From Deltaproteobacteria bacterium (lineage in GTDB: Bacteria > Desulfobacterota > UBA8473): a DNA stretch of 38,449 nucleotides. Where the stretch lies: the NCBI GenBank assembly GCA_003599365.1, contig QZJR01000016.1:1-38449 (forward strand), in the 5' to 3' direction. The notes beneath the pieces were generated by a model. The model searched no databases. It was not told where the DNA came from and saw only the letters and a program-made list of their open reading frames with translations. Positions 8,762-36,753 of this stretch are shown piece after piece (the first letter of the stretch is position 1; the number at the start of each line of letters is the position of its first letter). The translations under genes were made by a program, and so were the position numbers.

Positions 8762-10057
8762 TTACGGACTTACTTTCCCCAACTCGAGTCCCATAACGGG
8801 CTTTGGTGTCTTGAGGAAAAAGGTCAAAGCGCCGGCCAGTCCAAAACAGACGGCAGCGATTAAAAAAGGAACGACATAACTTCCGGTTATATCGTACACG
8901 AACCCTCCTATTAACGAACCAATAATAGCTCCGGTTCCGGCCATTGCCCAGAATATACCCATTATTTCCGTGAGATTTTTGTTCCCGAAATAGTTTCCTA
9001 TCAGTCCGGGAATCTGTGGGACCCTTGCCCCATAAAAGAAACCATAAAGGACAACAAATATAAGGAACATGTGTGAAGTTTTTATGAAAGGGAGCCAGAG
9101 GAGTGCAGCCGTTGAAAAAAAGGCAGCCACTATAAGGGATCTCTTTAATCCAAATAAATCCGAAAAAGCGCCTCCCAAAAGTCTTCCAACTATACTCATC
9201 CCGCCGATGAGTCCGAGACCGGTAGCGGCAGCCCCTTTGGGTATACCCATATTTATGGCGAAAGGTACTATATTGATCATGACAAGGTGCACTGGCAGGG
9301 CACAGAGTATCCAGATAGAACTCAATATATAGAATGTTTTGGTCCTTATAGCATCCTTAGTGATCCATTCCGCCATCTTTAGTGGGATGGTTTCCTCTGC
9401 TGTCGTAGTGTAGCCAACTTGTGGTTCCCCATCCAATCCGCCATGGAATTCTTCTTCTCCTAATGGACACAGACCGATATCCTCCGGTTTATCCACCATT
9501 GCCAGGGCAACCAGAGTGAGAATAGCCCATAAGAGCCCTCCAATGATAAAATAAGACGTTCGCCAGCCATAATGTGAAATTAAATAATTTGCCAGGGGGG
9601 CCGCAATGGGAGGGCCTGCACCGATACCGGAGACTGCGATACCTAAAGCCAACCCCTTCTTCTTTATAAACCACTTTTGAATGATTGAAGTGGGTAGAGC
9701 CGTAGTGGCGCCTACACCCAATGATGCGATAAGGTAAAACAGGTAGAATTGCCATAACTCCCTAACGATACCGCAAAGAAAGAAACCAAGACCCATAAAG
9801 AAGGCGCTCAAAAGAAACATTATCTTCGATCCGTATCTATCCGTCATCCTCCCTATTATTGGAATAGTAAGAATCATTACTGTCAGATGAAGAGAGTGTA
9901 TCGTGGAGATCAATCCGGCACTCCATCCAAATTCACTCTGCAAAGGCTTAAAGAACACCCCCAGAGAAAAGAAAAAACCATAACTGGATGCACTGATAAA
10001 GCAGCATATCGCTATTATCCAGCCATAAAAAAACTTTGGGTTATTTATCCTGTTCAC
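8762..10057 (-). CDS. MFS transporter (oxalate/formate-antiporter-like carboxylate transporter)
   Basis: ~12 TM segments and an OFA-like N-terminus 'FFYGWIIAICCFISASSYGFFFSLGVFFKPLQSEFGWS'. GTG start with a weak SD, so the start is uncertain. Confidence 0.85.
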   Translation of the reverse strand: MNRINNPKFFYGWIIAICCFISASSYGFFFSLGVFFKPLQSEFGWSAGLISTIHSLHLTVMILTIPIIGRMTDRYGSKIMFLLSAFFMGLGFFLCGIVRELWQFYLFYLIASLGVGATTALPTSIIQKWFIKKKGLALGIAVSGIGAGPPIAAPLANYLISHYGWRTSYFIIGGLLWAILTLVALAMVDKPEDIGLCPLGEEEFHGGLDGEPQVGYTTTAEETIPLKMAEWITKDAIRTKTFYILSSIWILCALPVHLVMINIVPFAINMGIPKGAAATGLGLIGGMSIVGRLLGGAFSDLFGLKRSLIVAAFFSTAALLWLPFIKTSHMFLIFVVLYGFFYGARVPQIPGLIGNYFGNKNLTEIMGIFWAMAGTGAIIGSLIGGFVYDITGSYVVPFLIAAVCFGLAGALTFFLKTPKPVMGLELGKVSP

Positions 10058-10156
10058 AATATATCCAAAATCCTTTCGTATCTCATCGTATTACCCCGGT
10101 ACATTATGCCATCACTGAATCACCACCTACAGGGAAAAACTTAAATAAATTGCGTG

Positions 10157-10182
10157 TCATTGCGAACGAAGTGAAGCAATCT
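10157..10182. repeat. Solo half-copy of the inner arm of the 4467-4620 element
   Basis: 'tcattgcgaacgaagtgaagcaatct' versus 'tcattgcgagcgaagcgaagcaatct' (24/26). No partner arm nearby. Confidence 0.5.
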
Positions 10183-10200
10183 CTTGGGAACATTCTCAGG

Positions 10201-10239
10201 AACCTCCTGATTTCCTCTTTTAGAGAGTTGCATGATAAA
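10201..10239 (-). other. ~40-nt relic resembling the 3' end of the MFS gene at 12156-13427
   Basis: 'aacctcctgatttcctcttttagagagttgcatgataaa' versus 12168-12208 'aacttcctgattccctcttttagagagtcgcaggatataaa' (4 mismatches plus a 2-nt indel). Intergenic, with no intact ORF. Confidence 0.35.
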
Positions 10240-10279
10240 AAAATCAAAGGCACTTGGAAGGACAAGAAGAACATTTGTC

Positions 10280-11077
10280 CTACTTGCCCCGAAAGACAGG
10301 TTTCCTCTTCTCCTTGAATGCCTTCTGTCCCTCCTTCAAATCCTCACTACTAAAGCACCGGTTGATAAGCTCCTCAGCCATGGCTTCGTCTTCCGGGGTA
10401 GGCATTGGTGAACTTACAGATTTATTGATGAGTATCTTAGCTCCGCTTACAGATAATGGAGCATTCTCTATTATCTCCCTGGCCAGATCATAGGTCGCTG
10501 ACAGAAGATCATCCTCTGATACCACGTAATTAACAAGCCCCATTTCTTTCGCCTTGTGTGCATCAACCATCCTTCCTGTAAGAAATAGTTCTTTTGCATT
10601 TGCCTCACCTACCAGATTGACGAATCGCCTATGCCCGCTAAAGGAATAAAGAACACCCAGTTTTGCCGGTGGCATGCCAAACTTTGCTTTATCAGAAGCT
10701 ATCCTGAGATCACACGTTGCAGCAAGTTCACAACCTGCTCCAAGGGTAAAGCCATTTACCATGGCAATAACAGGGTATCTATATTCAGAAATCACCTCAA
10801 GCCCCCTCAGCAATGGATTTATCTTTTTTAATGCTTCCATATCTTCCGGACTAATTCCTTTGGGAATATCGAAAATACTGTATCCTGAAGAAAATGCCTC
10901 GTTTCCGGCTCCACGGACGACAACAACTCTGGTTTCTTGATCATCATTTAAGGATTCCATAACCCTAATAAACTGAATTAACAGAGGGGGGGATAATGAA
11001 TTTCGTTTCTCGGGGCGGTTAAATACAATAGTACATATACGATCCTGCTTCTCAACTATTATTAACTTATCATCCAT
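10280..11077 (-). CDS. Crotonase-fold protein (enoyl-CoA hydratase/isomerase family) retaining only the first catalytic Glu
   Basis: 'FNRPEKRNS' and '[29 protein letters not shown]'. The second Glu position is Pro. SD 'aggagg' precedes the ATG at 11077. Confidence 0.9.
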
Positions 11078-11309
11078 TTAGTCCTCCTGCATGACCGAGC
11101 AGCATATTTAATTCCACGAAGCTGCCCGGATCCAGAAGTTTATCAATCCGTTCTCGGGCCGTTAACTTACCGGCATTATGAACCTCTTCTATTTTGTCTG
11201 GTCCTCCGCCGAGTTTTGCCTTTTCCTTAACCTCTCTTAATTGCTGAATCCTACCCTTACCTTGTCCTCCCACAATCTCCTCCTTTTCCTTCACATCGTT
11301 CAACCCCAC
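11070..11309 (-). pseudogene. N-terminal relic (79 codons) of an acyl-CoA carboxylase carboxyltransferase (PccB/MmdA-like)
   Basis: '[45 protein letters not shown]' matches the conserved N-terminus of ~510-aa carboxyltransferases. The frame ends after ~79 codons inside the SD/start of the next crotonase. GTG start with no SD. Confidence 0.6.
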
Positions 11310-11354
11310 CCTGTAACAGGCCAGCTTGATCCCTTGAATCCTTTTAATATCTTC

Positions 11355-12131
11355 TTACCTGCCGGTAAAGGTCGGTTTTCGTTTTTCCAGCATAGCCATT
11401 ACGCCTTCTCCGGCATCCTCACTCTGATTCACTTCATCTGCCAGGGCTCTTAACTCAGATTCAATTTGAGGATCGATCCCATGGCGCTCCAGAAGTTTGT
11501 TAATAGTCAATTTGGTAGCCTTCATAGCCAGTGGAGCATTTTCTTCAGCCAACTCCTTTGCCATGGAATAGGTGGTCTTAATCAGTTGATCAGAAGAAAC
11601 CACCTGACTGACAAGCCCTATCTCCAGTGCCCGTTTCGCATCTACAAGTTTTCCTGCCAAGAGCAGCTCTTTTGCCGCCGCTATACCCACCAAACTGAGG
11701 AGTCGGTTAATTGCGGTATAATAATAAATCCTTCCAAGCTTAACCAGGGTCGCGCCAAATCTGGCCCCTTCCGACGCTATCCTGAAATCCGAGATAACAG
11801 ATATGTCCAGCCCGGCCCCGATGGCCGGCCCGGAGATCATGGCTATGATAGGAGATGGATAACTAATCAGGTTATTGAGACAGTGCTCCAATCCCTTTAT
11901 GGTCTTTTCAATGGATTCAGATCCGCCGGAAAGGTCTACCCCTGAAGAAAAGATATTGTCTCCTGCTCCCCTTATTACAACCACTCGAATATTATTATCC
12001 TCCTTTAAATCACTGAGAATATCTCCCATGCTAAATAGTGCGTCTGCATTTAAGGCATTCCTTTTCTCAGGTCTGTTGATGGAAAGGGTAGTAATATAAC
12101 CATCATCTTCCCTTAAAATTTCTTCTACCAT
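11355..12131 (-). CDS. Crotonase-fold protein lacking both canonical hydratase glutamates
   Basis: 'INRPEKRNAL' and 'GAGLDISVISDFRIASEGARFGATLVKLG' (Glu1 to Asp, Glu2 to Leu). SD 'aaggagg'. Confidence 0.9.
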   Translation of the reverse strand: MVEEILREDDGYITTLSINRPEKRNALNADALFSMGDILSDLKEDNNIRVVVIRGAGDNIFSSGVDLSGGSESIEKTIKGLEHCLNNLISYPSPIIAMISGPAIGAGLDISVISDFRIASEGARFGATLVKLGRIYYYTAINRLLSLVGIAAAKELLLAGKLVDAKRALEIGLVSQVVSSDQLIKTTYSMAKELAEENAPLAMKATKLTINKLLERHGIDPQIESELRALADEVNQSEDAGEGVMAMLEKRKPTFTGR

Positions 12132-13460: not shown

Positions 13461-15197
13461 CTAAACAAACGAATCCATCTGCCACTCACCAAATACGCCT
13501 CTCAAAACATCACACTGTTCTTGAAGGGTAGCGTATTCTCTTGCCAGATTAACAAAAAGAGGCATCAGGTTCTCATCGTCCTTTTTGGCAGCCCTTTCCA
13601 ACTCTCCAAGAAGCCTCGTTACTTCCCGGTTGTTCCTTGTACGTTTGACTTCAGCAAGGTTAGCCTTCTGCTTTTTCTCGGCATCATACCTCTTCTCTTC
13701 AGAATACGGATGCTCAACCATCTTGCTGGTGGTCACATCCAGCTCGTATTCCTCTGTGAAACAGTTCACTCCAACTATGATATCTTCTCTTTTCTCTATC
13801 CTGGACTGACGTTCAGCAGCGCTCTTTGCAATCGAGCGTTGCATATACCCGTTCTCAATAGCAGCCACAGATCCACCTATCCCCTCGACTTTTTCCAGTT
13901 CTTTCCATGCTGCTTCCTCTATTTCATTGGTCAATGACTCTACATAGTAAGACCCGGCCAGAGGATCTAAAACATCGCACATCCCTGTCTCATACATGAG
14001 AATCCTTGTTGCATCCTCTGCAAGCTGCCTTGCTTCCAAACTCCAACCCAATCCCAGCGGCTCATCATACGGCGGGAAGGCCAATGGCGGACCTCCCGAA
14101 AGAACACCGGCTACTGCGCCTATTACTGAGCGGGTAAGATTGTTCAGTGCCCGTTGTTTGGTGGTGGTACTGATACCACTATAGGCTGTGTATTGGCTTC
14201 GGATTCTCATGCTTTCGGATTTCTTTGCACCGAATCTTTCCTTGAGAATCTTAGCCCACATACGGCGAGACGCCCTATGGAAAGCGATCTCCTTGAAAAA
14301 CTCCATACTACCACCAAAACCTACAAAGGAAAACCTGGGGGCAAAGGCATCAATATTGAGTCCTGCATTTATCCCTTCCTGTAAATAAGCAATCCCGTTA
14401 GCCATAGTGAATGCCAATTCCTGCTCTCTTGTGGCTCCTCCCTCACGGATATGAGCACCGCCAAAGCCGTTTATATTCATCGCCGGAAGACTCTCCGTAA
14501 AGAAGACCAGACTGTCTCGAAACATACGCATGGAAGGCCTCGGAGGGAATATGTAGGTGCCGCGGGAAATAAACTCCTTTAGTATGTCATTCTGGGGGGT
14601 ACCCTTCAACTTTGCCAGTGATATACCCCTCTTCTCTGCAAGAGCCACATACATGGCAACCAGGATATTTGCAGGGGCATTTATCGTCATGTTTGTAGCG
14701 ATCTTGTCCAGATCCAGATTGCCTGTAAATGCCTCAAATATAACCTCAAAATCCCGCAAGGTGTCTACTGCCACACCCACCTTACCTATCTCTCCTTCAA
14801 CTATCTCATTATCCGAATCATAGCCGCACTGGGTAGGAAGATCTAACGCCAGGTTGGGCCCGCCTGTATACATTAATTTCGCCATTAATCTGTAGTAATC
14901 CCTGGTGTCTTCCGGGGTTCCATATCCGGAATATGTTCCTGCCCTTCTCAACCCCCCAGGCTTTGCACCTTTTTCAAGTCTTGGTACAAGATTTACCGGA
15001 TAAGAGGCTGCCGTCAATGGATATTGCCCAGGGAAACCCACATCCCGTAAGAAATCAAAGTCCGGTATGTCTAAAGGCGTATGGAATTCTGTCGGCCTTT
15101 TTTCTATACCAAACCTCTTGGCCGCAGGCAACAACGCCTTCTCCTCCCATTCCTCCTTCTTCTCTTTTATCTCAGCCAATTTATCTTTATTATCCAT
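13461..15197 (-). CDS. Acyl-CoA mutase large (catalytic, B12-dependent) subunit, divergent paralog 1 (578 aa, no fused B12 domain)
   Basis: MCM-family core: 'GTPQNDILKEFISRGTYIFPP', 'HIREGGATREQELAF', 'DPLAGSYYVESLT'. The N-terminal signature diverges ('FPGQYPLTAAS' in place of '..TRG'). Confidence 0.9.
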   Translation of the reverse strand: MDNKDKLAEIKEKKEEWEEKALLPAAKRFGIEKRPTEFHTPLDIPDFDFLRDVGFPGQYPLTAASYPVNLVPRLEKGAKPGGLRRAGTYSGYGTPEDTRDYYRLMAKLMYTGGPNLALDLPTQCGYDSDNEIVEGEIGKVGVAVDTLRDFEVIFEAFTGNLDLDKIATNMTINAPANILVAMYVALAEKRGISLAKLKGTPQNDILKEFISRGTYIFPPRPSMRMFRDSLVFFTESLPAMNINGFGGAHIREGGATREQELAFTMANGIAYLQEGINAGLNIDAFAPRFSFVGFGGSMEFFKEIAFHRASRRMWAKILKERFGAKKSESMRIRSQYTAYSGISTTTKQRALNNLTRSVIGAVAGVLSGGPPLAFPPYDEPLGLGWSLEARQLAEDATRILMYETGMCDVLDPLAGSYYVESLTNEIEEAAWKELEKVEGIGGSVAAIENGYMQRSIAKSAAERQSRIEKREDIIVGVNCFTEEYELDVTTSKMVEHPYSEEKRYDAEKKQKANLAEVKRTRNNREVTRLLGELERAAKKDDENLMPLFVNLAREYATLQEQCDVLRGVFGEWQMDSFV

Positions 15198-15252
15198 GAT
15201 AAGTCTACCTCCCTATCTCAGTTGATAAAACATGGTTGTCATTATTCTAAAC

Positions 15253-15380
15253 GTAACTATTCAGGCAGGCACAAAGGCACAGAGCACCAAAGGCACAAAG
15301 TAGGAAAAAACAATGAGACGACCCTGCTCCGCTCTGCTTTGTACCTATGTGCCTTTGCCACTTTGTGCCTGAGTAGTTAC
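15253..15380. mobile_element. 128-bp MITE with terminal inverted repeats and an 8-bp target-site duplication
   Basis: TIRs are 'gtaactattcaggcaggcacaaag' (left) and the reverse complement of the right end, 'gtaactactcaggcacaaag'. Flanking direct repeats are 'ttctaaac' (15245-15252) and 'ttctagac' (15381-15388). The paralogous empty site at 13451-13470 reads 'tgtcattattctaaacaaac'. Confidence 0.7.
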
Positions 15381-15382
15381 TT

Positions 15383-17119
15383 CTAGACAAACGTATCCAA
15401 CTGCCACTCACCAAACACACCTCTTAAAACATCGCATTGCTCTTGAAGGGTCGCATACTCCCTTGCCAGATTAATGAAAAGGGGCATCAGGTTCTCATCT
15501 TCCTTTTTAGCAGCACTCTCCAATTCTTTCAGAAGCCTCGTAACCTCCCGGTTATTCCTTGTCCGCTTCACCTCAGCCAGATTGGCCTTCTGCTTTTTCT
15601 CGGCATCATACCTCTTCTCTTCAGAATACGGATGCTCAATGATCTTACTGGTGGTTACATCGAGCTCATATTCCTCTGTAAAACAATTCACCCCTACAAT
15701 AAGTTCCTCTCTCCTCTCTATCCTGGCCTGACGCTCGGCAGCGCTCCTTGCACATTCGCGCTGCATATACCCGTTTTCTATTGCCGTCACGGCACCCCCT
15801 ATCCCTTCGATCTTCTCCAGCCCTTTCCACGCAGCATCCTCTATTTCGTTGGTCAATGATTCCACATAGTAAGACCCGGCCAGAGGGTCTATAACATCGC
15901 ACATCCCCGTCTCATACATGACAATCCTTGTGGCATCCTCGGCCAGTTGTCTCGCTTCTAAACTCCAGCCCAACCCCAGCGGTTCATCATATGGTGGAAA
16001 TGCCATTGGCGAACCTCCGGAGAGAACTCCAGCTATTGCCCCTACCACAGAACGGGAAAGGTTGTTCAGCGCCCGCTGCTTGGTGGTGCTGCTGCAACCA
16101 ATATGAGCTGAGAGAGGACACCGGATCCTCATACTATCCTGCTTCTTTGCACCGAACCTTTCTTTAAGAATCTTTGCCCACATACGGCGAGCTGCCCTCT
16201 GAAAGGCTACCTCCTTAAAAAGCTGCATGCTCCCCCCAAACCCATTGAAGGTAAACTTGGGGGCAAAGGCGTCAATATCGACCCCTGCATTCACACCCTC
16301 CTGCAAATAGGCAATCCCTATGGCCATACTAAAGGCCAGCTCCTGTTCCCGAGTAGCTCCCCCTTCACGAATATGATACCCACCGATACTGGTTATGTTT
16401 ACCCCTGGAAGATTCTCAGTAAAGAAGACCACGCTGTCTCGAAACATCCGCATAGAAGGTCTCGGAGGAAATATGTAGGTGCCCCTGGAAACAAACTCTT
16501 TTAGTATGTCATTCTGGGGTGTACACCTTAGTTTTGCCATGTTTATGCCCCTCTTTTCAGCCAGGGCTATGTACATGGCAACCAGGATATTTGCAGCGGC
16601 ACTGATGGTTATGTTCGTGGCTATCCTGTCCAGATCCTGCTCTCCTGTAAATGCCTCATAAATAACCTCAAAATCCCGCAAGGTATCTATCGCGACCCCC
16701 ACCTTGCCTACTTCCCCTTCGACCGTCTCATTATCCGAATCATAACCGCACTGGGTAGGGAGATCTAATGCCAGGTTGGGACCGCCTGTATACATTATCT
16801 TCGCCATCTGCTTATAGTAATCCCTGGTATCTTCCGGAGTGCCATAGCCGGAATATGTCCCTGCCCTTTTCAACCCCCCAGGCTTTGCACCCTTTTCAAT
16901 CCGAGGCACAAGACTTATTGGATAAGCTGATGGGGTAAACGGATATTGCCCCGGAAAACCAACATCACGCTCAAAGTCAAAATCCGCTATATCCAAAGGC
17001 GTATAGAATTCCGTCGGACTTTTCTCTATACCGAACCTCTTGGCTGAGGGCATCAATACCTTCTCTTCCCATTCCTTCCTCTTCTCTTTTATCTCACTCA
17101 ATTTATCTTTATTATCCAT
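15383..17119 (-). CDS. Acyl-CoA mutase large subunit, divergent paralog 2 (578 aa), tandem duplicate of 13461-15197
   Basis: Collinear with paralog 1 with no indels (constant 1922-nt offset), roughly 80-85% aa identity by eye. 'CTPQNDILKEFVSRGTYIFPP' and 'GGYHIREGGAT'. Confidence 0.9.
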   Translation of the reverse strand: MDNKDKLSEIKEKRKEWEEKVLMPSAKRFGIEKSPTEFYTPLDIADFDFERDVGFPGQYPFTPSAYPISLVPRIEKGAKPGGLKRAGTYSGYGTPEDTRDYYKQMAKIMYTGGPNLALDLPTQCGYDSDNETVEGEVGKVGVAIDTLRDFEVIYEAFTGEQDLDRIATNITISAAANILVAMYIALAEKRGINMAKLRCTPQNDILKEFVSRGTYIFPPRPSMRMFRDSVVFFTENLPGVNITSIGGYHIREGGATREQELAFSMAIGIAYLQEGVNAGVDIDAFAPKFTFNGFGGSMQLFKEVAFQRAARRMWAKILKERFGAKKQDSMRIRCPLSAHIGCSSTTKQRALNNLSRSVVGAIAGVLSGGSPMAFPPYDEPLGLGWSLEARQLAEDATRIVMYETGMCDVIDPLAGSYYVESLTNEIEDAAWKGLEKIEGIGGAVTAIENGYMQRECARSAAERQARIERREELIVGVNCFTEEYELDVTTSKIIEHPYSEEKRYDAEKKQKANLAEVKRTRNNREVTRLLKELESAAKKEDENLMPLFINLAREYATLQEQCDVLRGVFGEWQLDTFV

Positions 17120-17167
17120 GATACCTTTACCTCCCCCTAAACCTGAAATATTTCCAGCCAGAACTTT

Positions 17168-17575
17168 TCAGGCTATTTTACGTACGTTTTTCCTTATAAA
17201 GTCCCCAATATCCTTTATCAGAGTACCAGGACCAAAGATTTCTGTGACACCTTTCTCTTTGAGTATTGGGATATGCTCGTCAGGTATAATGCCACCACCT
17301 ATAACCAACATATCTCCAGCGTCATTTTCCCTCAAAAGATTCACAACCTTGGGGAAGAATGTCAGATGGGCTCCGGATAGGATGCTAAGCCCCACAACAT
17401 CCACATCCTCTTGCAGTGCTGAGTTTACAATCTGTTCGGCTGACTGTCTCCTTCCGGTATAGATTACTTCCATACCCTGGTCTCTCAGCCCGAAGGAGAG
17501 AACCTTTGCGCCTCTATCATGTCCGTCAAGCCCGGGCTTTGCTATTAATACCTTTATCTTTCTTTCTTTTTCCAT
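17168..17575 (-). CDS. Stand-alone B12-binding (cobalamin) small subunit of an acyl-CoA mutase
   Basis: '[18 protein letters not shown]' (DxHxxG), 'GLSILSG' (SxL), 'IGGGIIP' (GG). ATG at 17575 has SD 'aaggagg'. The track's TTG at 17614 would overlap the upstream gene. Confidence 0.9.
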
Positions 17576-17588
17576 AAAAAACACCTCC

Positions 17589-19544
17589 TTAATCATAGAT
17601 AGTCTGACATTCAAGTATCTCCACCGGTACCTCGGTTTCTCTTTCTATCTCCATATATACCCTTCCTGTCAGGTCCCTTCCCCACCCACTTAGATTGAAG
17701 GGCGAAGATGGGATTACGACCAAATCCGGTTTTACATCCGTTGATTTAATATAATCTTTTATATAGTTAATATAATCCTGGACTACTAATAAATCCCCCA
17801 TACAGATATTACCCCCAAAAAATCGGTTTGGAGGAACAGCAACCTTTATATCAATGTTCCTTCCTCTAAAGAAAGGGGATTCCAGCATGACCTTTTCCAG
17901 CAATGGCTTAATAAGGATTGACGTAAGGAAGAGGATGTTTTTGGCACCTTTCTTTTCGATAAGGTATTCTAATGACTCCAGGTAACCTCCCCGAAGACCT
18001 GTGCCCATAAATATTATCCCGAGATGGGTGTCGATATCCCTCGAATATGGGTATGAAGTCTTGTTTAAATTGAGTAAGAGATCCAATGTACAACCCTTCC
18101 TCAAGACCTCTATTGCCACAGATTCCATCTCATTCTTTTGTAAAATGGAGAGGAGGGTTCGGGCCTGAGGTCTATTGTGGATCACATTGCTCCCTATCTT
18201 CGTCAATATATCGCCTCTTCGCAAACCACTGTTAGCCACCGGAGAGCCTTTCACTATTCCGATAATTTCCGGCAGGTTCTTCCGGTTACAGAACAGCCCC
18301 TCTTCATACATAGCAGGCCTGATTACTATGGGAATCCCGTATTTACTCCTTATATCCCTTACCTTCCTGGCAATCGCCTCCCAGATGGAATCATGGTCGA
18401 ACAGATCATCTTCTGAAAAGTACTTAGAGTACCCCGGTAAGCTGATTTCTGCGAGATGGGCGTCATTTTCATCAGCATACTCAATCGTTCTCTCCATGTC
18501 ATCCAGCATCTCCTCCGGAGATCCGTCAGGCCATGGCACAATGACTGTGTTGTAAGGAATACCGGCTTTCCTGAGTAAAGGCAGAGATTTGATAGCTATC
18601 TCCGGGGTTTTGTCATGCATTAACCTCTGCCTCCTATGAGTTGAAGAACTATGCAGGGCAACATCCAGGTGCAATGGATTAAACCCCAAAAGGTAATCAA
18701 TCATCTCCTCTGTCAGAGTCGAACCATTTGTAGTTATTCTTATAAGTTTATCGCTCTTCTTCCGAACTTCCTGTAGTACCTCTCTGAAATGGGGATGAAT
18801 GAATGCCTCAAAGCTGCTCCCCAGACTTGTGAATAAGTTCTTCTTTTTTTCAGGATAAAAGTATTTCAGGCGGGTCTGTACCTCTTTGAACTCTTCGTCA
18901 GGAGACTTAGAAGGGTTCGTAAGTGCCAGAGATGGGGGACATCCTTTGTTATAACAAAAAACACAGTTGCAGTTGCATCTTGTTGCCAGATATCCCAACA
19001 TATCAGCGGGATCACAGGAAGACTCTTCAACCCATTGGGACAAGTCTTTAAGCCTGAAGGCATCGACTTTCACTGTCTTTCCATGACTTTCCAGCTCCAC
19101 CAAATCCAACAAACTCTGTAGTAGTCGTTGAATATACTCGACAGTCGGTTCATAAAGGGAGGTATTTCTTATAGATTGGAAACCGCACCCCCATGCGTCC
19201 CCATTTTCTTCTTCGAGAGATTTGCCGTTGTCTCCGTCCGGATATCTGATGGTTTCCGTTGGCATAAGGTTTCCCCGGCGTTCGCTATCCGATTCGACAG
19301 GGCACCCTTCATCCCCATCGAATACCCTGTGTATACGACTCCTGTCGTTCATCAATTTGAATCCGTCAATCCTTACCTCAGAATCTCCGTTACAGGGGAT
19401 TGCTATATCGAGGATATTCCTCAAATGCATTCTCAAAAGATCTAATCGAGAGGCACAGCGCTTATCCTCTCTATTGGTGCCATCAGACATTTTATATCGA
19501 AAGACATAATCATTGTCTGAAGATGCTGTTTCTTCCCTTTTCAT
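17589..19544 (-). CDS. Radical SAM protein with an internal PDZ-like domain, a DUF512-like C-terminus and an unassigned ~175-190-aa N-terminal region
   Basis: 'CNCNCVFC' is CxxxCxxC. The PDZ-like stretch is '[21 protein letters not shown]'. The C-terminus '[28 protein letters not shown]' resembles DUF512. ATG at 19544 has SD 'aggag', whereas the GTG at 19595 has none. Confidence 0.8.
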
Positions 19545-19602
19545 TTTGACTCCTGAATTCTGTCTCCTGTCTCCTGAACAGTTAGAAATCACCACGATTA
19601 TT

Positions 19603-24017: not shown

Positions 24018-24422
24018 TTACAGACCTGCATGTTGTACTGTTTCATTTATACATCTGATGATACTTTGAAGACGGGATCCAGGCCCGAATATTTCCACGA
24101 CTCCCATTTCTCTTAATTTAGGTTTTTCTTTGGGTGTGATGATCCCTCCCACCAAGATAGGAATATTATCGCCTCCTTGTTCACTCAAGGCTGACTTTAC
24201 TTTCGAAAAAAGCGTTACTGCTCCACCTGCATGAATGCTCAGTCCGATAATATCCGCTCCTTCTTCGACTGCCGCCTGAGCGATTTCATTTGGGGTCAAA
24301 TCGACTCCTAGATAAACAACTTCCATCCCTGCATCCATCAAGGCTTTTGCCAAAACGTTTATCCCTCTCAGGTGACCATCTAAGCCAGGTTTTGCCAAAA
24401 GAATCCTGATATTTTTTTTCAT
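24018..24422 (-). CDS. Stand-alone B12-binding small subunit of an acyl-CoA mutase
   Basis: '[18 protein letters not shown]' (DxHxxG), 'GLSIHAGG', 'LVGGIITP'. Lies directly downstream of the 553-aa large subunit. Confidence 0.9.
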   Translation of the reverse strand: MKKNIRILLAKPGLDGHLRGINVLAKALMDAGMEVVYLGVDLTPNEIAQAAVEEGADIIGLSIHAGGAVTLFSKVKSALSEQGGDNIPILVGGIITPKEKPKLREMGVVEIFGPGSRLQSIIRCINETVQHAGL

Positions 24423-24470: not shown

Positions 24471-26132
24471 TCAAACCGTTACATTGGCTCCTCTCTCCCA
24501 AGCCCGTCGAACCTCCCCAAGAGTTGCCAATGCTTTATAGGCTTCCACCATTGATCTCATGGTATTCATGCCCTTTTCAGTAATATGAGTTATCTCGTTC
24601 AATGCCCTCTCAACCGATTTTTGGTCTCTTTTTCTTTTAATCTCGGATAGAAACGCAATCTGTTTCTCTTCAAAATCTGGATCTATTTCAAAGAGGTTTA
24701 ATTCCTGATCTTCTTGCTCGTCAAGGGTAAACGCGTTAAGCCCGACAACAACCTGTTTGTTGTTTTCTATCCTTTTTTGTTTTTCATATGCTGCTGATAG
24801 ATAGCTGTCCTGTATCCATTTCCAAGCCTTAACCGCGCCTCCTCTTTTATCCACCTGTTCTATAATTTCAAAGGATTTTCTTTCCAACTCATCAGTGAAT
24901 GCCTCAATACAATAAGACCCCCCCAGGGGATCTACCGTATTGGCAACACCACTTTCATGAGCTATGATTTGCTGAGTTCGCAGAGCGATCAAAGCAGCTT
25001 CGGGAGTTGGGGCAGCAAACGCTTCGTCATAGGAATTAGTATGTAGAGAATTGCAACCTCCTAACACTGCGGCAAGGGCCTGTATGGTGGTTCTTATTAT
25101 GTTGTTCAATGGTTGTTGTGCCAACAAGGAATTGCCGGCTGTCTGAACGTGATACCGCAGAAGCAAACTCCTCTCTTCTTTCGCATGAAATCTGTTCTTC
25201 ATTATTTTAGCCCAGACTCTCCTCGCTGCCCTGAATTTGGCCACTTCTTCCAGGAAATCCGTCTCACAACTAAAAAAGAAACTCAACCTTGGGGCAAATG
25301 AGTCGACATCCATACCCCTTTCAATGAAATCTTCGACATAGGCAATCCCGTCAGCAAGGGTAAACCCGATTTCTTGTGCTGCTGTGGCACCTCCTTCTCG
25401 AATATGATAGCCAACAATACTCAATGGATTCCATAACGGTAAATATCTCGTAGCGAACTCTACAGCATCACCGTGTACTTTCATTCTTAAAGGCAATGGA
25501 GCCATCCTAAACCAATTACACGAGTGAGAATTGTTGATACAATCGTTTTGGATCGTTCCTTTTAATTTGTGGAGTTGGACACCCCGATTCTCCGCCATAG
25601 CAATGTACATAGGAAATAAAAAGGGATGCGGAGCAATAAGGCTCACAGAAACCTTCTCTATGTCAATTTCATCAAACAGATCTTCCATATCTATTAAAGT
25701 ATCGATAGCCGTTCCGTTGATTCCTACCTGGCTCTGCGAGATATCTTCGTCTGAATCTCTGACATTCAAAGTGGGAGGATCGAAAACCGGATTTAACCCT
25801 GTCTCCCCATGAGCGAGAAGGTTCTTCAATATCTTATTCGATTCCTTGCCACCCATTGCCCCTGAAACAAGACGATGAGTCCAGAGTTGTCCGCGATAGC
25901 CGGTAGGCCTTATCCCTCGCGTAAAGGGATATTGACCGGGGAAATTCAGGTCATCCAGATACTCAATATTCTTGATATCTTCCGGGGTATAAACCCTGCT
26001 TACATTGTTTATTGATGAAGTTGAGAATTCACTTTCTCGCTCCCCCATTTTTTCAAGAATAGGGTTTACACATTTTTTCTCCCAGTTGATTTTTTCTTCT
26101 TCTATACGTTTTATATCCAGTTCGCCGCCCAA
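24471..26132 (-). CDS. Acyl-CoA mutase large subunit, paralog 3 (553 aa)
   Basis: 'FPGQYPFTRGIRPTGY', 'GTIQND', 'GYHIREGGATAAQEIGFTLADG', 'HVQTAGNSLLAQQPLNN', 'LHTNSYDEA', 'DPLGGSYCIE'. TTG start with SD 'aaggag' at 6-nt spacing. Confidence 0.9.
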   Translation of the reverse strand: MGGELDIKRIEEEKINWEKKCVNPILEKMGERESEFSTSSINNVSRVYTPEDIKNIEYLDDLNFPGQYPFTRGIRPTGYRGQLWTHRLVSGAMGGKESNKILKNLLAHGETGLNPVFDPPTLNVRDSDEDISQSQVGINGTAIDTLIDMEDLFDEIDIEKVSVSLIAPHPFLFPMYIAMAENRGVQLHKLKGTIQNDCINNSHSCNWFRMAPLPLRMKVHGDAVEFATRYLPLWNPLSIVGYHIREGGATAAQEIGFTLADGIAYVEDFIERGMDVDSFAPRLSFFFSCETDFLEEVAKFRAARRVWAKIMKNRFHAKEERSLLLRYHVQTAGNSLLAQQPLNNIIRTTIQALAAVLGGCNSLHTNSYDEAFAAPTPEAALIALRTQQIIAHESGVANTVDPLGGSYCIEAFTDELERKSFEIIEQVDKRGGAVKAWKWIQDSYLSAAYEKQKRIENNKQVVVGLNAFTLDEQEDQELNLFEIDPDFEEKQIAFLSEIKRKRDQKSVERALNEITHITEKGMNTMRSMVEAYKALATLGEVRRAWERGANVTV

Positions 26133-26330
26133 TTAGAACTCCTTATTCTATCATAATTGTCTTATTGCATTTTCCTTTTTAGCAAGTTATAAAAAGTCAT
26201 AAAGAATTAACTCAGGTTTTTCTAATCACTCTCCATCCGTTTGATTCGTTCTGCGAGATTATCGAATTTGAACCATAGGGATCAGGTCTTGAATATTTGT
26301 GTAAAGATGGGCTCAAGAGACTAACCTCTT

Positions 26331-27896
26331 CTATTCCGGCTCGCCAAATATTTCCCTTTCTCTTTTCTTCAACTCGACCTTCTTGACCTTGCCACTCGTG
26401 GTCATGGGAAACTCCTTCAAGAATTCCAGACTTGTGGGATACTTATATTTGGCCACTTTACCCTCCAGATACTCGTGTATCTCCTCTAGAGTAATGGTTT
26501 CCCCTTCCTTCAATACAATAAAGGCCTTCCCGGTCTCGCCCCATTTTTTATCAGGCACACCGATAATCGCTGCATTGGCGATCTTGGGATGGTCAGCCAG
26601 AACCTTCTCTGTTTCAGCAGGATACACATTTTCACCCCCACTGCGATACATATCCTTGGCCCGATCTACGATATAAAAATAACCTTCCTCATCCGTATAA
26701 CCCAGGTCGCCGGTGTCAAGCACCTCGTTTACAAGCACCTTTGCAGTTTCCTCCGGCATATTCCAATAGCCGCTCATCCTGGTAGGTCCCTTGCATACAA
26801 TGCGGCCGACTTGACCTGGGGGAAGTTTGTTCCATTCATCGTCCGCTATCCAGACCTCGGTGCAGAATCCTGGCAACCCGATAGAGCCCTTCTTCCTTTC
26901 CACATCTTCTTTGGGCAGCATCATCATCGCCGAGTTTTCAGTCTGACCAAACCCCTGCTGCAAAAAAAGCCCCTTTTGCGCCAGTTCATCAAGCAAACCG
27001 AGGGGGGTTCTTTCCCCTCCTCCGAATGTAATTCGAACATTACTTGTGTCGACTTCATTGAGCCGTCCTGTCTGGAGTACAAACCTCCACATTGTAGTAA
27101 GAGAAAAGACGACAGTGGCTCTGTATCTTTCAATGTCTTCCGCATACTTTACCGGATCAAAGTCCTGCCTCAAAATCATTGTTGCGCCTCTCCAAAGAAC
27201 AGGCGTGGCAGTGACAAAAATACCTCCGGAATGAAACAGAGGCAACTGCGCCAGGATTATATCATCTGACCTCATGTCCATGTACATCATGATCTGAATG
27301 TTTTTAAAATAGGTCTGCAGGTGAGAGACAAGGGCTCCTTTAGGGGCTCCCATTGTCCCTGATGTATATATAATGGCCAGAGGATCATCCATATCAACAG
27401 GCTTATCAGGCTGTGGCTCATCAACAGGGTATTTCTCGATCACTTCATGGTAGTCCGCCGCCCATTCAGGACAGCTTAGAGCCTCTTCTTGAGCGCTTCT
27501 CTTTACAAAAATGAATTTATCCTTTTCAACCTTTATCCTGGAGCGAATGGAACCGGTCATCTCTGTAAACTTGTCATGAAACATAAAGACACTAGCGCTA
27601 CAGTTGTTAAGCTGATACTCTACCTCAGGCCCAACCATACGGAAATTCAGCGGGACAAAAATAAGCCCGAGCTTGGCAGCGGCAAAGTATATCTCAATAA
27701 ATTCCGGGCAGTTTAAGAGCATCACCGAAATTCTGTCACCCTTTTTGACCCCCATTTCTTTCAGAAGATTGGCAACACGGTTGGCGTTATCGTTAATCTC
27801 CTTATAAGTAACCGGTCTATCCTCATAAATCAAAGCCGGTTTGTTTGGTGTCAATAAGGCTCTTTTTGCAGCAATACGGCCTATGTCCCATTCCAT
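26331..27896 (-). CDS. AMP-forming acyl-CoA synthetase/ligase (ANL superfamily)
   Basis: 'IIYTSGTMGAPKG', 'GYWNMPEETAK', 'DTGDLGYTDEEGYFYIVDRAKD', 'SGKVKK'. Confidence 0.92.
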   Translation of the reverse strand: MEWDIGRIAAKRALLTPNKPALIYEDRPVTYKEINDNANRVANLLKEMGVKKGDRISVMLLNCPEFIEIYFAAAKLGLIFVPLNFRMVGPEVEYQLNNCSASVFMFHDKFTEMTGSIRSRIKVEKDKFIFVKRSAQEEALSCPEWAADYHEVIEKYPVDEPQPDKPVDMDDPLAIIYTSGTMGAPKGALVSHLQTYFKNIQIMMYMDMRSDDIILAQLPLFHSGGIFVTATPVLWRGATMILRQDFDPVKYAEDIERYRATVVFSLTTMWRFVLQTGRLNEVDTSNVRITFGGGERTPLGLLDELAQKGLFLQQGFGQTENSAMMMLPKEDVERKKGSIGLPGFCTEVWIADDEWNKLPPGQVGRIVCKGPTRMSGYWNMPEETAKVLVNEVLDTGDLGYTDEEGYFYIVDRAKDMYRSGGENVYPAETEKVLADHPKIANAAIIGVPDKKWGETGKAFIVLKEGETITLEEIHEYLEGKVAKYKYPTSLEFLKEFPMTTSGKVKKVELKKREREIFGEPE

Positions 27897-34591: not shown

Positions 34592-34999
34592 TTACCCTGA
34601 TGTCCCAGCATCAAAATGACTTCTAACATAGTCCACTATATCTGAAATCTTTGTTCCGGGAGTGAATATCCCTTCTATTCCAATCCCTTTCAATGTGGGT
34701 ACAATTGGCGGGGGGATGATCCCGCCAACAATGATCTGAATATCCCGGATTGATCTCTCCTTGAGCAGCTCTACCAATCTCGGCACAAGAATTTCAGGAG
34801 CGCCATCCATAATTCGGTAGCCTATGAAGTCTACATCCTCCTGAACGGCAGATTTCACTATCTGAGGGGGAATCTGGAACCCCCCAAGTATTACCTCTAT
34901 ACCTGCCTCCCTCAACCCCTTTCCCACTACATAGTAACCGGTAGCATGCCCCGGACTGTCAGAAACCAGCAACACTCTGATCTTTTTATTAAGTTCCAA
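34592..34999 (-). CDS. Divergent stand-alone B12-binding-domain protein (small-subunit paralog lacking the Asp of DxHxxG)
   Basis: 'RVLLVSDSPGHATGYYV' aligns to '[13 protein letters not shown]', so His and Gly are kept and Asp becomes Pro. SxL is 'GYRIMDG', and the GG motif is 'IVGGIIPP'. TTG start with SD 'ggagg'. Confidence 0.8.
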   Translation of the reverse strand: MELNKKIRVLLVSDSPGHATGYYVVGKGLREAGIEVILGGFQIPPQIVKSAVQEDVDFIGYRIMDGAPEILVPRLVELLKERSIRDIQIIVGGIIPPPIVPTLKGIGIEGIFTPGTKISDIVDYVRSHFDAGTSG

Positions 35000-35015
35000 T
35001 CTCCACCTCCAAGTT

Positions 35016-35086
35016 TAGACTATAGACTATTAGCCTGTAGACTATTAGCCTACTTCAGCCTACAGCCTAAACACCTGAGTAGTTAC
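35016..35086. repeat. Tandem 'tagactattagcct' repeats ending in the 'cctgagtagttac' terminus shared with the MITE
   Basis: Copies lie at 35023-35036 and 35038-35051. The block is 24/28 identical to the reverse complement of hairpin 6227-6254. 'cctgagtagttac' occurs at 35074-35086 and also at 15368-15380. Confidence 0.55.
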
Positions 35087-36753
35087 ATACCGAAGTAGCA
35101 TCCCCATACATGGCTTAGATCTGCCGGGCCATAAACCTTTTCTCTTATCTCAACAATCTCTCCGATGCTCAGATATGCCTTAACAGCCTCTACCATAGGT
35201 CCTATTATATTTATTCTATTCCTGTACGCATCTTCCAGCAGCTTCTTCGCTTTCTCTGCTTTTCCAGGGTCTCTTTTCTTCTTAACTCTATCGAGCCTTT
35301 CTATCTGTTTGTCTCTCCAGACAGGATCGTATCCCAGAATATCCGTATTACCGAGATCAATCCCCCCTTCACCCTCTCTCACAACAAATCTATTAACACC
35401 CACCATAGCCCTTTCGTTATTGTCTATGGCCTTTTGCCTGAGATATCCGGACTCTTTGCCCTGATCAACAATATACTTATATGCCTTCCGGGGCTCCATA
35501 TCCTCTAATTCTTTCAGTGTCTCTAATGCCTTTTGTTCAAGTTGATTGGTAAGAGACTCTATGCAATATGAACCCCCTAAAGGATCGATAACGTTTGCTA
35601 CACCGCTTTCATGGCCAATTATCTGTTGGGTACGCAGTGATAAGGTAGCTGAAGCCCTGGTTGGTATGGCTAATGCCTCGTCAAAGGAGTTTACAGACAT
35701 TGACTGAGCACCCCCCAGCACAGCAGCAAGGGCGTGGATGGTAGAGCGGATTACGTTATTAAGGGGCTGCTGGGCTGTCAGGTTAATTGCTGTGGTCTGG
35801 GTATGGAATCGCATAAGCCATGATCTGGGATCCCTGGCATTGAACCTTTCTTTAACTGTCCTTGCCCATAACCTGCGCATTGCGCGGAATTTGGCTACCT
35901 CTTCCAGGAAGTCATTCTCAGAGCTGAGAAAAAAGGAGATCCTTGGGGCAACTTCATCAACATCTATGTTCCTTGCGATTACGGATTGCAGGGTAAAACC
36001 TCCCATGTAGACCCCAAAAGCAATTTCCTGAGGGGCAGATATGCCTTCATCCCTGATATTCCTCACAGAGATACTGGTATGGTTCCATCGCGGCAGATTC
36101 TTTGTGCAATACTCACTGATATCCACCGAACCATTCCCCCTCATTTGCGGGCCTTCGCCAAAAGGGAAAACACAGTTCTGAATAGTTCCGGACAGATTCT
36201 TAAAATCTATACCCTGCCTTTCGGCTTCTGCCAGAATCATGGCAAAGACAGGTATGGAAAAGCCAATCTGGTTGATGCTGATCTCAGACATATCTATCCC
36301 GTCAAACAGGGTTTCAATGTCTGCCAGGGTATCAATCCATACCCCGCCCTTTCCCAGAATACCAAAACTCCGTTCATCACCGGACTCATAGGGCTGGTAG
36401 CCCATTCCGCAGACACTGAATCCGGTCTGCCCTTGTTTAAATAGATATTTCAGCCTCTCGTTGGTCTCCTCAGCAGTCCCCAATCCTACTACCTGTCTTA
36501 TAGTCCATTCTTTTGTCCTATAACCTGTTGGCGTGACCCCCCTGGTAAAGGGATACGAACCGGGGGAAGAAATATCTTCAACATAGTTATTGTCTTTAAT
36601 ATCAAGAGGGGTGTAAATCGGTTTTAAGGGGAGCCCTGAAAGGGTTGTCATCTCTTTCTCTTCTATTGAAAATTTCTTTAAGACTTCTTTAACACTGGCT
36701 TCATATCCCTTGTTCAATTGCTCAATCTCTTTCAATATCTCTTCTTTAAACAA
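35083..36753 (-). CDS. Acyl-CoA mutase large subunit, paralog 4 (556 aa), with the most divergent active-site motifs
   Basis: 'SPGSYPFTRGVTPTGY', 'HTQTTAINLTAQQPLNN', 'DPLGGSYCIESLT'. However, it has 'GTIQNCVFPFGEG' and 'VRNIRDEGISAPQEIAF' in place of the QNDILKE and GYH..EAGA motifs. TTG start with SD 'ggagg'. Confidence 0.88.
   Translation of the reverse strand: MFKEEILKEIEQLNKGYEASVKEVLKKFSIEEKEMTTLSGLPLKPIYTPLDIKDNNYVEDISSPGSYPFTRGVTPTGYRTKEWTIRQVVGLGTAEETNERLKYLFKQGQTGFSVCGMGYQPYESGDERSFGILGKGGVWIDTLADIETLFDGIDMSEISINQIGFSIPVFAMILAEAERQGIDFKNLSGTIQNCVFPFGEGPQMRGNGSVDISEYCTKNLPRWNHTSISVRNIRDEGISAPQEIAFGVYMGGFTLQSVIARNIDVDEVAPRISFFLSSENDFLEEVAKFRAMRRLWARTVKERFNARDPRSWLMRFHTQTTAINLTAQQPLNNVIRSTIHALAAVLGGAQSMSVNSFDEALAIPTRASATLSLRTQQIIGHESGVANVIDPLGGSYCIESLTNQLEQKALETLKELEDMEPRKAYKYIVDQGKESGYLRQKAIDNNERAMVGVNRFVVREGEGGIDLGNTDILGYDPVWRDKQIERLDRVKKKRDPGKAEKAKKLLEDAYRNRINIIGPMVEAVKAYLSIGEIVEIREKVYGPADLSHVWGCYFGM

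Follow-up and report, generated by a model that had tools for sequence, protein, structure and literature searches.

A split B12-dependent acyl-CoA mutase with both classical specificity residues replaced, a candidate for a new substrate class

Which acyl-CoA is rearranged by a B12-dependent mutase that has kept its catalytic residues and lost both of the residues that classically determine specificity? The question is raised by contig QZJR01000016.1 of a Deltaproteobacteria bacterium (assembly GCA_003599365.1), whose entire 38,449 nucleotides are referred to here as the window and which encodes a 553-residue acyl-CoA mutase large subunit, M553, followed by its small B12-binding subunit, S134. 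To our knowledge, the acyl-CoA mutase specificities characterized so far number only five or six, and the classes considered here are those of methylmalonyl-CoA mutase (MCM), ethylmalonyl-CoA mutase (ECM), isobutyryl-CoA mutase (ICM), 2-hydroxyisobutyryl-CoA mutase (HCM) and pivalyl-CoA mutase (PCM). A first-pass annotation, made from the sequence alone, proposed M553 as a candidate for a new substrate class, and our analysis supports this candidacy: Arg or Gln is not restored at the altered specificity position, no close homolog has an assigned function, and no equivalog model matches. Sequence comparison indicates that M553 and S134 very likely form an active B12-dependent acyl-CoA mutase, and we favor, with moderate confidence, the reading that this adenosylcobalamin (AdoCbl)-dependent enzyme belongs to an uncharacterized specificity class.

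Specificity positions and catalytic residues of M553

PF01642 (MM_CoA_mutase) covers residues 38-546 of M553 (E 9e-176; 585.8 bits, cut-off 22.1), and the canonical scaffold motifs quoted in the first-pass annotation are all found in the 553-residue open reading frame, with FPGQYPFTRG at residue 64, GYHIREGG at 241, QTAGNSLLAQ at 330 and LHTNSYDEA at 363. Two segments had been singled out as different, HRLVSGA at residue 86 and QNDCINNSHSC at 195. The replacement of RQYAGF by HRLVSGA is real, and it is this segment that carries the first specificity residue. The Tyr89 position of MCM had instead been sought in the conserved TGY motif, which is wrong: the PDB chain of the Y89F mutant (5REQ) reads WTIRQFAGF, with the Phe at chain index 88, i.e. 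residue 89, and Tyr89 is therefore the tyrosine of RQYAGF, where M553 has Val89. The tyrosine of TGY is a separate residue, conserved throughout the family (MCM Tyr79). This correction strengthens the case for a new class, because M553 has a valine at the Tyr89 position in addition to its change at Arg207.

In the second segment, a simple gapless alignment had placed a cysteine at the Arg207 position, and the assignment holds when insertions and deletions are allowed: HMMER, MAFFT and hhalign all identify this residue as Cys205, and none of the alignments restores Arg or Gln. Specifically, pairwise HMMER comparison with four MCM chains (P. shermanii, human and M. tuberculosis) introduces no gap after the start of QND and sets Cys205 opposite the Arg at MCM chain index 206, which is residue 207. 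MAFFT gives the same pairing in three different sequence sets, as does an hhalign profile-profile alignment of the clade of M553 orthologs against MCM-type split mutases, in which the sole local indel is a one-residue insertion after Pro214, the conserved PxP anchor. The sole exception is the pairwise HMMER alignment to HcmA, the large subunit of an HCM, which shifts by one residue and puts Asn206 at the Arg207 position. Both classical specificity determinants, Tyr89 and Arg207, are replaced in M553.

Judged by these alignments, M553 lacks the Tyr/Arg carboxylate clamp shared by MCM and ECM, the ICM pair Phe/Gln and the HCM triad Ile/Asp/Gln. Its predicted pocket instead contains Val89, Cys205 and, where HcmA has Asp117, Val116; Asn114, Thr141, Ile166 and Val240 accompany them. 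Twenty positions that are identical in the compared MCM-type and ICM-like sets are changed and fixed in the M553 clade, among them Met78 to Gly, Ser114 to Asn, Ala116 to Val, Val141 to Thr, Thr166 to Ile, Ser240 to Val and Gln361 to Asn; several of these positions reportedly line the CoA/substrate channel in the MCM structure 4REQ. Residues found uniquely in the clade are His86, Arg125, His169, Cys198, His203, Cys205, Trp207, Arg216 and His220.

M553 and all clade members keep the equivalents of Gln197, Tyr243, His244, Gln330 and Asn366 (P. shermanii numbering), and the Tyr243-His244 dyad, correctly recognized as retained in the first pass, is formed by Tyr242-His243 of M553. The occurrence of two invariant cysteines and one invariant histidine within eight residues at the specificity site could point to repurposed chemistry, in which Cys205 or Cys198 would act as a thiyl radical relay resembling that of class II ribonucleotide reductase, or in which a Cys/His site would bind a metal. 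This idea draws solely on those three residues. M553 retains every residue required for the usual 1,2-acyl shift, the gene context offers the idea no support, and the presence of Val, Ala or Gly at the Arg207 column elsewhere suggests simple tuning of pocket shape, so we regard it as extremely improbable.

The M553 clade and its place in the mutase family

A search of 5.8 billion clustered proteins recovered 15 clusters (40 member sequences) that are 70-90% identical to M553, after which the next matches fall abruptly to ~51%. The motifs WTHRLVSG[A/V]MGG, GLNPVFDPPT and QNDCI[N/D]N[S/T]HSCNW are kept in all 15 clusters. The segment WTHRLVSGAMGG is invariant in the 15 clade sequences except at Ala92, which is Val in P0004 (P-numbers denote homologous proteins compared with M553, and L-numbers related loci). 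Invariance extends to Ile166, Pro168, His169, Pro170, Phe171, Leu172, Phe173 and Pro174 in the strand 4 region, where position 167 is Ala or Thr, and to Cys198, His203, Cys205, Asn206 and Trp207 in the rebuilt segment. Pairwise ratios of nonsynonymous to synonymous substitution rates (dN/dS) against orthologous loci are 0.06-0.12. Because the changed pocket segments are invariant in 15 orthologs and dN/dS is this low, the changes are not due to chance; purifying selection on the rebuilt pocket is strong.

How often the variant occurs, a count called for in the first pass, was determined in two further collections, and the signature proved rare. The peptide IQNDCINN is present at four clade loci among 185,579 species (one genome per species), in metagenome-assembled genomes (MAGs) labeled Desulfobacteria, Desulfobacterales, 'Proteobacteria' and unclassified, and two clade peptides are found at four loci in 241 million Joint Genome Institute (JGI) metagenome records (contigs). 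The Val/Val/Cys signature marks a sharply bounded, rare clade.

The concern that close homologs might already be functionally assigned was checked, and among relatives at least 70% identical to M553 there are none: all are metagenomic and carry generic names of the type 'methylmalonyl-CoA mutase family'. No NCBIfam equivalog reaches its cut-off on M553, as the MCM model NF006944 scores 493.6 bits against 876 and the IcmF model NF045497 268 bits against 1500, and only the subfamily domain model TIGR00641 passes (593.3 bits, cut-off 303.8). A full-text literature search, whose reach did not extend to the main IcmF/HcmAB specificity studies, returned no description of a Val/Cys-type mutase or of PCM pocket residues. 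We also considered whether M553 is an ortholog of the ketone-pathway HCM of Desulfococcus biacutus or Desulfosarcina cetonica, and rejected this because there is no named match at 70% identity or above; the lack of a thiamine diphosphate (TDP)-dependent enzyme in the window disfavors it further.

To place the clade, a tree was built from the 120 best homologs together with HcmA, human MMUT and the neighboring paralogs. The M553 clade is monophyletic on a long branch and lies on the HCM/ICM side of the tree; beyond its sister group, described below, are other non-canonical paralogs and HcmA. An AlphaFold2 (AF2) model of M553, confident overall (pLDDT 84, pTM 0.89), confirms the fold, and the closest structure found by Foldseek is HcmA (4r3u; TM 0.93). 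Tree and fold are also what would be expected if M553 had one of the known specificities, for isobutyryl-, pivalyl- or 2-hydroxyisobutyryl-CoA, and achieved it with other residues. The importer, ligase, mutase and acetoacetyl-type thiolase encoded near its relatives would suit a route from isobutyrate via butyryl-CoA to acetyl-CoA, and work on the IcmF F598A variant reportedly leads one to expect a smaller residue at the Tyr89/Phe position for pivalyl-CoA. However, many distant homologs, bacterial as well as archaeal, strictly conserve the ICM-type Phe/Gln and HCM-type Ile/Asp/Gln signatures, whereas the M553 clade differs at both or all three signature positions and at ~20 more sites conserved in the MCM-type and ICM-like sets, and the Asp that binds the hydroxyl in HcmA is missing. 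Such strict conservation of the canonical signatures across very distant lineages makes an isofunctional enzyme less likely, and we consider it quite unlikely.

The breadth of the family limits what the signature can establish. In a HMMER pass over 1.84 billion cluster representatives, the best 150 of these 50%-identity representatives (P0121-P0270) display dozens of residue combinations at the Tyr89, Ala116, Arg207, Tyr243 and His244 columns; many are without Tyr243 and/or His244, and three other representatives among them have Cys at the Arg207 column. As judged from these columns, the pockets of the mutase family hold a large uncharted diversity. Dozens of pocket signatures in the family are unassigned, that of M553 among them, and the new class is thus a candidate and not a demonstration.

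Partner subunit, gene neighborhoods and predicted substrate

S134 matches PF02310 (E 2e-22) and TIGR00640 (131.6 bits, cut-off 57), and His17 of its DxHxxG motif is presumed to be the lower axial ligand. Every related locus encodes a small-subunit ortholog behind the large subunit, and this gene, when accompanying genes were recorded as the first pass had advised, proved to be the sole constant neighbor. The small subunits of the clade form a separate ortholog group, and all seven of them carry the clade-specific motif form DGHLRG, where others have DGH(D/N)RG. A second altered motif, GLSIHAGG, which has His instead of Leu in the SxL cobalamin-tail motif, is common to all M553-type small subunits (L001, L002, L004, L021, L023 and L025); together, the two changes could influence the choice of cobamide lower ligand.

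The window encodes three more mutase large subunits, M578a, M578b and M556, and two small subunits besides S134, and all of its mutase genes lie within a long minus-strand island of CoA-ester enzymes (Table 1). With four large subunits in the window, and with a second mutase pair adjoining M553 orthologs in L001, L002/L003 and L021, M553 might be a non-catalytic or degenerate paralog, e.g. a partner of another window mutase resembling MutA of P. shermanii MCM. We consider this highly unlikely, as M553 keeps all of its catalytic residues under strong purifying selection and has its own DxHxxG partner. Moreover, in four contexts (L004/L007/L031, L023/L024, L025 and L029) the M553-type pair occurs without a second mutase and is therefore not an obligate partner of M556. 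The candidate for a degenerate partner is instead M556 with its small subunit S135, which have lost Tyr243-His244 and the motif Asp, respectively.

The gene neighborhoods vary with distance from M553. The two closest relatives, L005 and L006 (97-98% identity), retain the large island of the window, with an AMP-ligase directly upstream of the M553 ortholog, a PrpD-family protein, a GntR regulator, a small protein resembling ATC hydrolase, crotonases, an NMO-type flavoprotein, a family III CoA-transferase, a radical-SAM/PDZ protein and the M578 module. The TTG start of M553 is shared by the orthologs in L001, L005 and L006, and the 521-residue ligase encoded upstream of M553 probably activates the substrate acid. 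In L001 (90%), the M553 pair directly follows an M556/S135 pair and has no catabolic genes behind it. At 70-79% identity, TetR recurs, as do two paralogs of SCP2/BbsB/archaeal-type thiolase with a DUF35 protein and a LIV-type ABC importer with an embedded acyl-CoA ligase of 590-640 residues; an acyl-CoA dehydrogenase, a 3-hydroxyacyl-CoA dehydrogenase and a second or third mutase pair are sometimes present. Counted over nine distinct contexts, an acyl-CoA (AMP-binding) ligase lies within 10 kb in six, a LIV-type importer or binding protein in five, SCP2/BbsB-type thiolase and/or DUF35 genes in four, another mutase in four and TetR in three. The thiolase-like neighbors in L002 were considered as an archaeal-type 3-hydroxy-3-methylglutaryl-CoA (HMG-CoA) synthase complex, an identification that was rejected as both resemble SCP2/BbsB/archaeal thiolases and not HMGCS.

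Two of the related loci have features of their own. In L015, the mutase copy (82% identical; positions 9977-11568, MAG X2_MetaBAT.32) is divided into two frames flanking an N-run, which suggests a gap in the assembly and not a pseudogene; the gene directly upstream encodes a LIV-type binding protein. L021 (91-5266) encodes MeaB and, after it, two more mutase pairs of non-canonical type; a Y1 transposase and the M553-type pair come next, which makes three different split mutases within 8 kb; the signatures of the extra pairs are Leu/Cys/Gln-Tyr-His and Leu/Val/Ile|Thr-Tyr-Asn, the third position differing between alignments.

What, then, would the enzyme act on? We lean toward a substrate outside the five characterized classes. 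The lack of the Tyr/Arg clamp, the Asp and the Gln, combined with Val89, Val116, Ile166 and Val240, implies that the substrate most likely is one without a distal carboxylate or hydroxyl. It is probably an α-branched (tertiary or quaternary) alkyl acyl-CoA, which the enzyme would convert to a β-oxidizable isomer, and the specific assignment to neutral branched alkyl acyl-CoAs is one that we hold tentatively, with somewhat less than even confidence. By family inference, S134 would bind B12 base-off/His-on through His17 of DxHxxG, Co-C homolysis would generate the 5'-deoxyadenosyl radical that abstracts a substrate hydrogen, and the CoA-thioester carbon would then move to the neighboring carbon, assisted by Tyr242-His243 and Gln195. 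Neighborhoods with importer, ligase, mutase and thiolase suggest a sequence of uptake, activation, rearrangement and cleavage, in which a free branched acid would be imported, converted to its CoA ester by the ligase, rearranged by the mutase and cleaved as the β-oxidizable isomer.

Several observations weigh against this assignment. The side chains that line the pocket are inferred from alignment, and the AF2 model has low confidence in three loops that line the substrate, 79-85, 334-338 and 368-374. The residues of the rebuilt segment are polar and not greasy (Cys198, Asn200/201, Ser202, His203, Ser204, Cys205 and Asn206), and any of the clade-invariant residues Arg125, Arg216, His169 and His220 could bind a polar or anionic group. 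Some side chains are enlarged (Ala116 to Val, Thr166 to Ile and Ser114 to Asn), and the pocket is therefore reshaped and not simply enlarged. Finally, the L001 mutase module lies among housekeeping genes, and neighborhoods vary between loci.

These points bear on a rival assignment, a polar or charged substrate whose amino, hydroxyl, thiol or carboxylate group would be held by Cys198, His203, Cys205, Asn206, Arg125 and Arg216, all of which are clade-invariant and none of which is present in the MCM, ICM and HCM sets. PrpD-family proteins and family III CoA-transferases, both encoded in the window cluster, usually handle di- or tricarboxylates, and genes of the M20 and M24 peptidase families flank two relatives. 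However, among the relatives the PrpD/CoA-transferase context is confined to the closest, L005 and L006, and M578a and M578b, which keep Tyr89/Arg207, could serve a dicarboxylyl-CoA instead. We consider a polar substrate unlikely and retain the branched alkyl acyl-CoA as the working assignment.

We rate at just short of even the prospect that the Val89/Val116/Cys205 clade carries out a natural 1,2-acyl shift outside the MCM, ICM, ECM, HCM/RCM and PCM reactions; an example would be the linearization of a longer 2-alkyl-, 2,2-dialkyl-branched or alicyclic acyl-CoA. If so, it would provide a B12-dependent route past blocks to β-oxidation for subsurface relatives of sulfate reducers that degrade branched acids in groundwater. 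Earlier new specificities opened the ethylmalonyl-CoA pathway, the degradation of methyl tert-butyl ether (MTBE) and 2-hydroxyisobutyric acid (2-HIBA), and pivalate metabolism, and each is a biocatalyst for carbon-skeleton rearrangements that are hard for chemistry. The clade is a small, clean target: its catalytic core is intact, neither of the classical specificity residues is left, and it has a dedicated small subunit. Its value is tempered by the dozens of comparable pocket signatures in the family, and sequence and context name no substrate.

The remaining mutases of the window are unusual in their own right. M556 has Arg-Asn in place of Tyr243-His244 and a deletion over the Arg207 segment, and in S135 a Pro occupies the Asp position of the DxHxxG motif, features that may identify the pair as a non-catalytic or mechanistically divergent partner. 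An M556-type pair lies directly upstream of the M553 pair in L001 (7814-9947), and the M553-like pair of L002/L003 is followed by a more distant pair of M556 type (43% identity, again with Arg-Asn; L002 12027-14122). The tandem 578-residue subunits M578a and M578b share a single small subunit, S148; both have a ~13-residue insertion after FPGQYPFT, M578b has Ala at the Tyr243 position, and, from their sequences, both are candidates for acting on bulky dicarboxylyl-CoAs, e.g. substituted succinyl- or malonyl-CoA. Overlapping the start of S148 is the gene of a radical-SAM and PDZ protein with an N-terminal extension of ~190 residues, which is also found next to S148 in L005 and L006 (83-86% identity).

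The window has a G+C content of 45%, and an Rfam scan of it found no cobalamin riboswitch and no other RNA. Metagenomes from groundwater, subsurface and aquatic sources, one freshwater-sediment run and one unlabeled run, from nine studies, contain near-identical DNA; every run containing this stretch is a DNA metagenome, and none is an RNA run.

Table 1. Mutase-related features of the window and their positions
Feature	Position	Strand	Basis
M553, large (substrate-binding, TIM-barrel) acyl-CoA mutase subunit, 553 aa	24471-26132	minus	PF01642, TIGR00641, fold
Start codon TTG (26130-26132) and Shine-Dalgarno AAGGAG (26139-26144), 6 nt upstream	26130-26144	minus	sequence
Beta-strand 1 segment WTHRLVSGAMGG; Val89 (25866-25868) at MCM Tyr89 position	25848-25883	minus	alignments
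GLNPVFDPPT; Asn114 for MCM Ser114, Val116 at HcmA Asp117/MCM Ala116	25770-25799	minus	alignments; clade-invariant
Beta-strand 4 region KVSVSLIAPHPFLFPM; 2-residue deletion, Ile166 for Thr166	25608-25655	minus	alignments
Rebuilt segment QNDCINNSHSCNWFRMAPLPLR; Gln195 equivalent to Gln197, Cys205 (25518-25520) at Arg207	25485-25550	minus	alignments
GYHIREGG; Tyr242-His243, retained catalytic Tyr243-His244 dyad	25389-25412	minus	alignments
S134, small B12-binding subunit, 134 aa, 48 nt downstream of M553	24018-24422	minus	PF02310, TIGR00640
DxHxxG cobalamin motif of S134, D15-G-H17-L-R-G20	24363-24380	minus	translation and alignment
GLSIHAGG of S134	24213-24245	minus	
AMP-forming acyl-CoA ligase, 521 aa, directly upstream of M553	26331-27896	minus	PF00501 and PF13193
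M556, mutase large subunit	35083-36753	minus	
M556/S135 pair	34592-36753	minus	
M578a, mutase large subunit	15383-17119	minus	
M578b, mutase large subunit	13461-15197	minus	
M578a/M578b tandem with S148	13461-17614	minus	
Radical-SAM and PDZ protein	17589-19595	minus	

Comparison with characterized mutases and the sister group

The branch nearest to the M553 clade is a sister group of metagenomic and actinobacterial mutases (e.g. P0021, P0086, P0087 and P0095) that are likewise split in two subunits and 47-50% identical to M553. They share Gly78, Asn114 and Ile166 with M553 and, in part, Val116, Val240 and Asn361. Their signature is (Val/Ile)-(Val/Ile)-(Val/Ala), with Val or Ala at the Arg207 position where M553 has Cys, and they have Gln in place of His244, which M553 retains. 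No functional clue was found in the sister-clade neighborhoods L026 and L027, and since the group is itself uncharacterized, no function can be transferred from it to M553.

Among characterized enzymes, MCM (P. shermanii MutB, 1REQ; human MMUT, 2XIJ) has the same fold, radical machinery and CoA channel as M553 (E 1e-95 to 5e-106; query-normalized TM 0.86-0.89). However, its Tyr89/Arg207 carboxylate clamp is Val/Cys in M553, whose B12 domain is, unlike that of MCM, a separate protein. ECM is said, in the 2008 work of Erb and colleagues, to keep the Tyr and Arg. HcmAB of Aquincola tertiaricarbonis (4R3U) is split in the same manner as M553/S134, with a large subunit of ~560 residues and a B12 subunit of ~135, and HcmA is the best PDB sequence match to M553 (E 5e-142, ~43% identity), sharing the Gln197, Tyr243, His244, Gln330 and Asn366 equivalents. 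The two differ by a two-residue deletion in strand 4 and a one-residue insertion after PxP in M553, and by the substitution of Val89/Val116/Cys205 for Ile90/Asp117/Gln208, which removes the Asp by which HcmA binds the substrate hydroxyl; the Ile/Asp/Gln triad of HcmA is also present in six genomic HCM-type loci, whereas M553 has Val/Val/Cys in those columns.

ICM/IcmF and PCM resemble M553 in being without the Arg/Tyr carboxylate clamp, and the substrates of ICM and PCM are neutral. ICM-type homologs have Phe/Gln (63+ sequences) where M553 has Val/Cys, and M553 has no fused G-protein, unlike IcmF. PCM reportedly has Gln at the Arg207 position, where M553 has Cys205. The reaction of ICM and PCM, in which a branched acyl-CoA is converted to its straight-chain isomer, is the closest analogy to the reaction proposed for M553.

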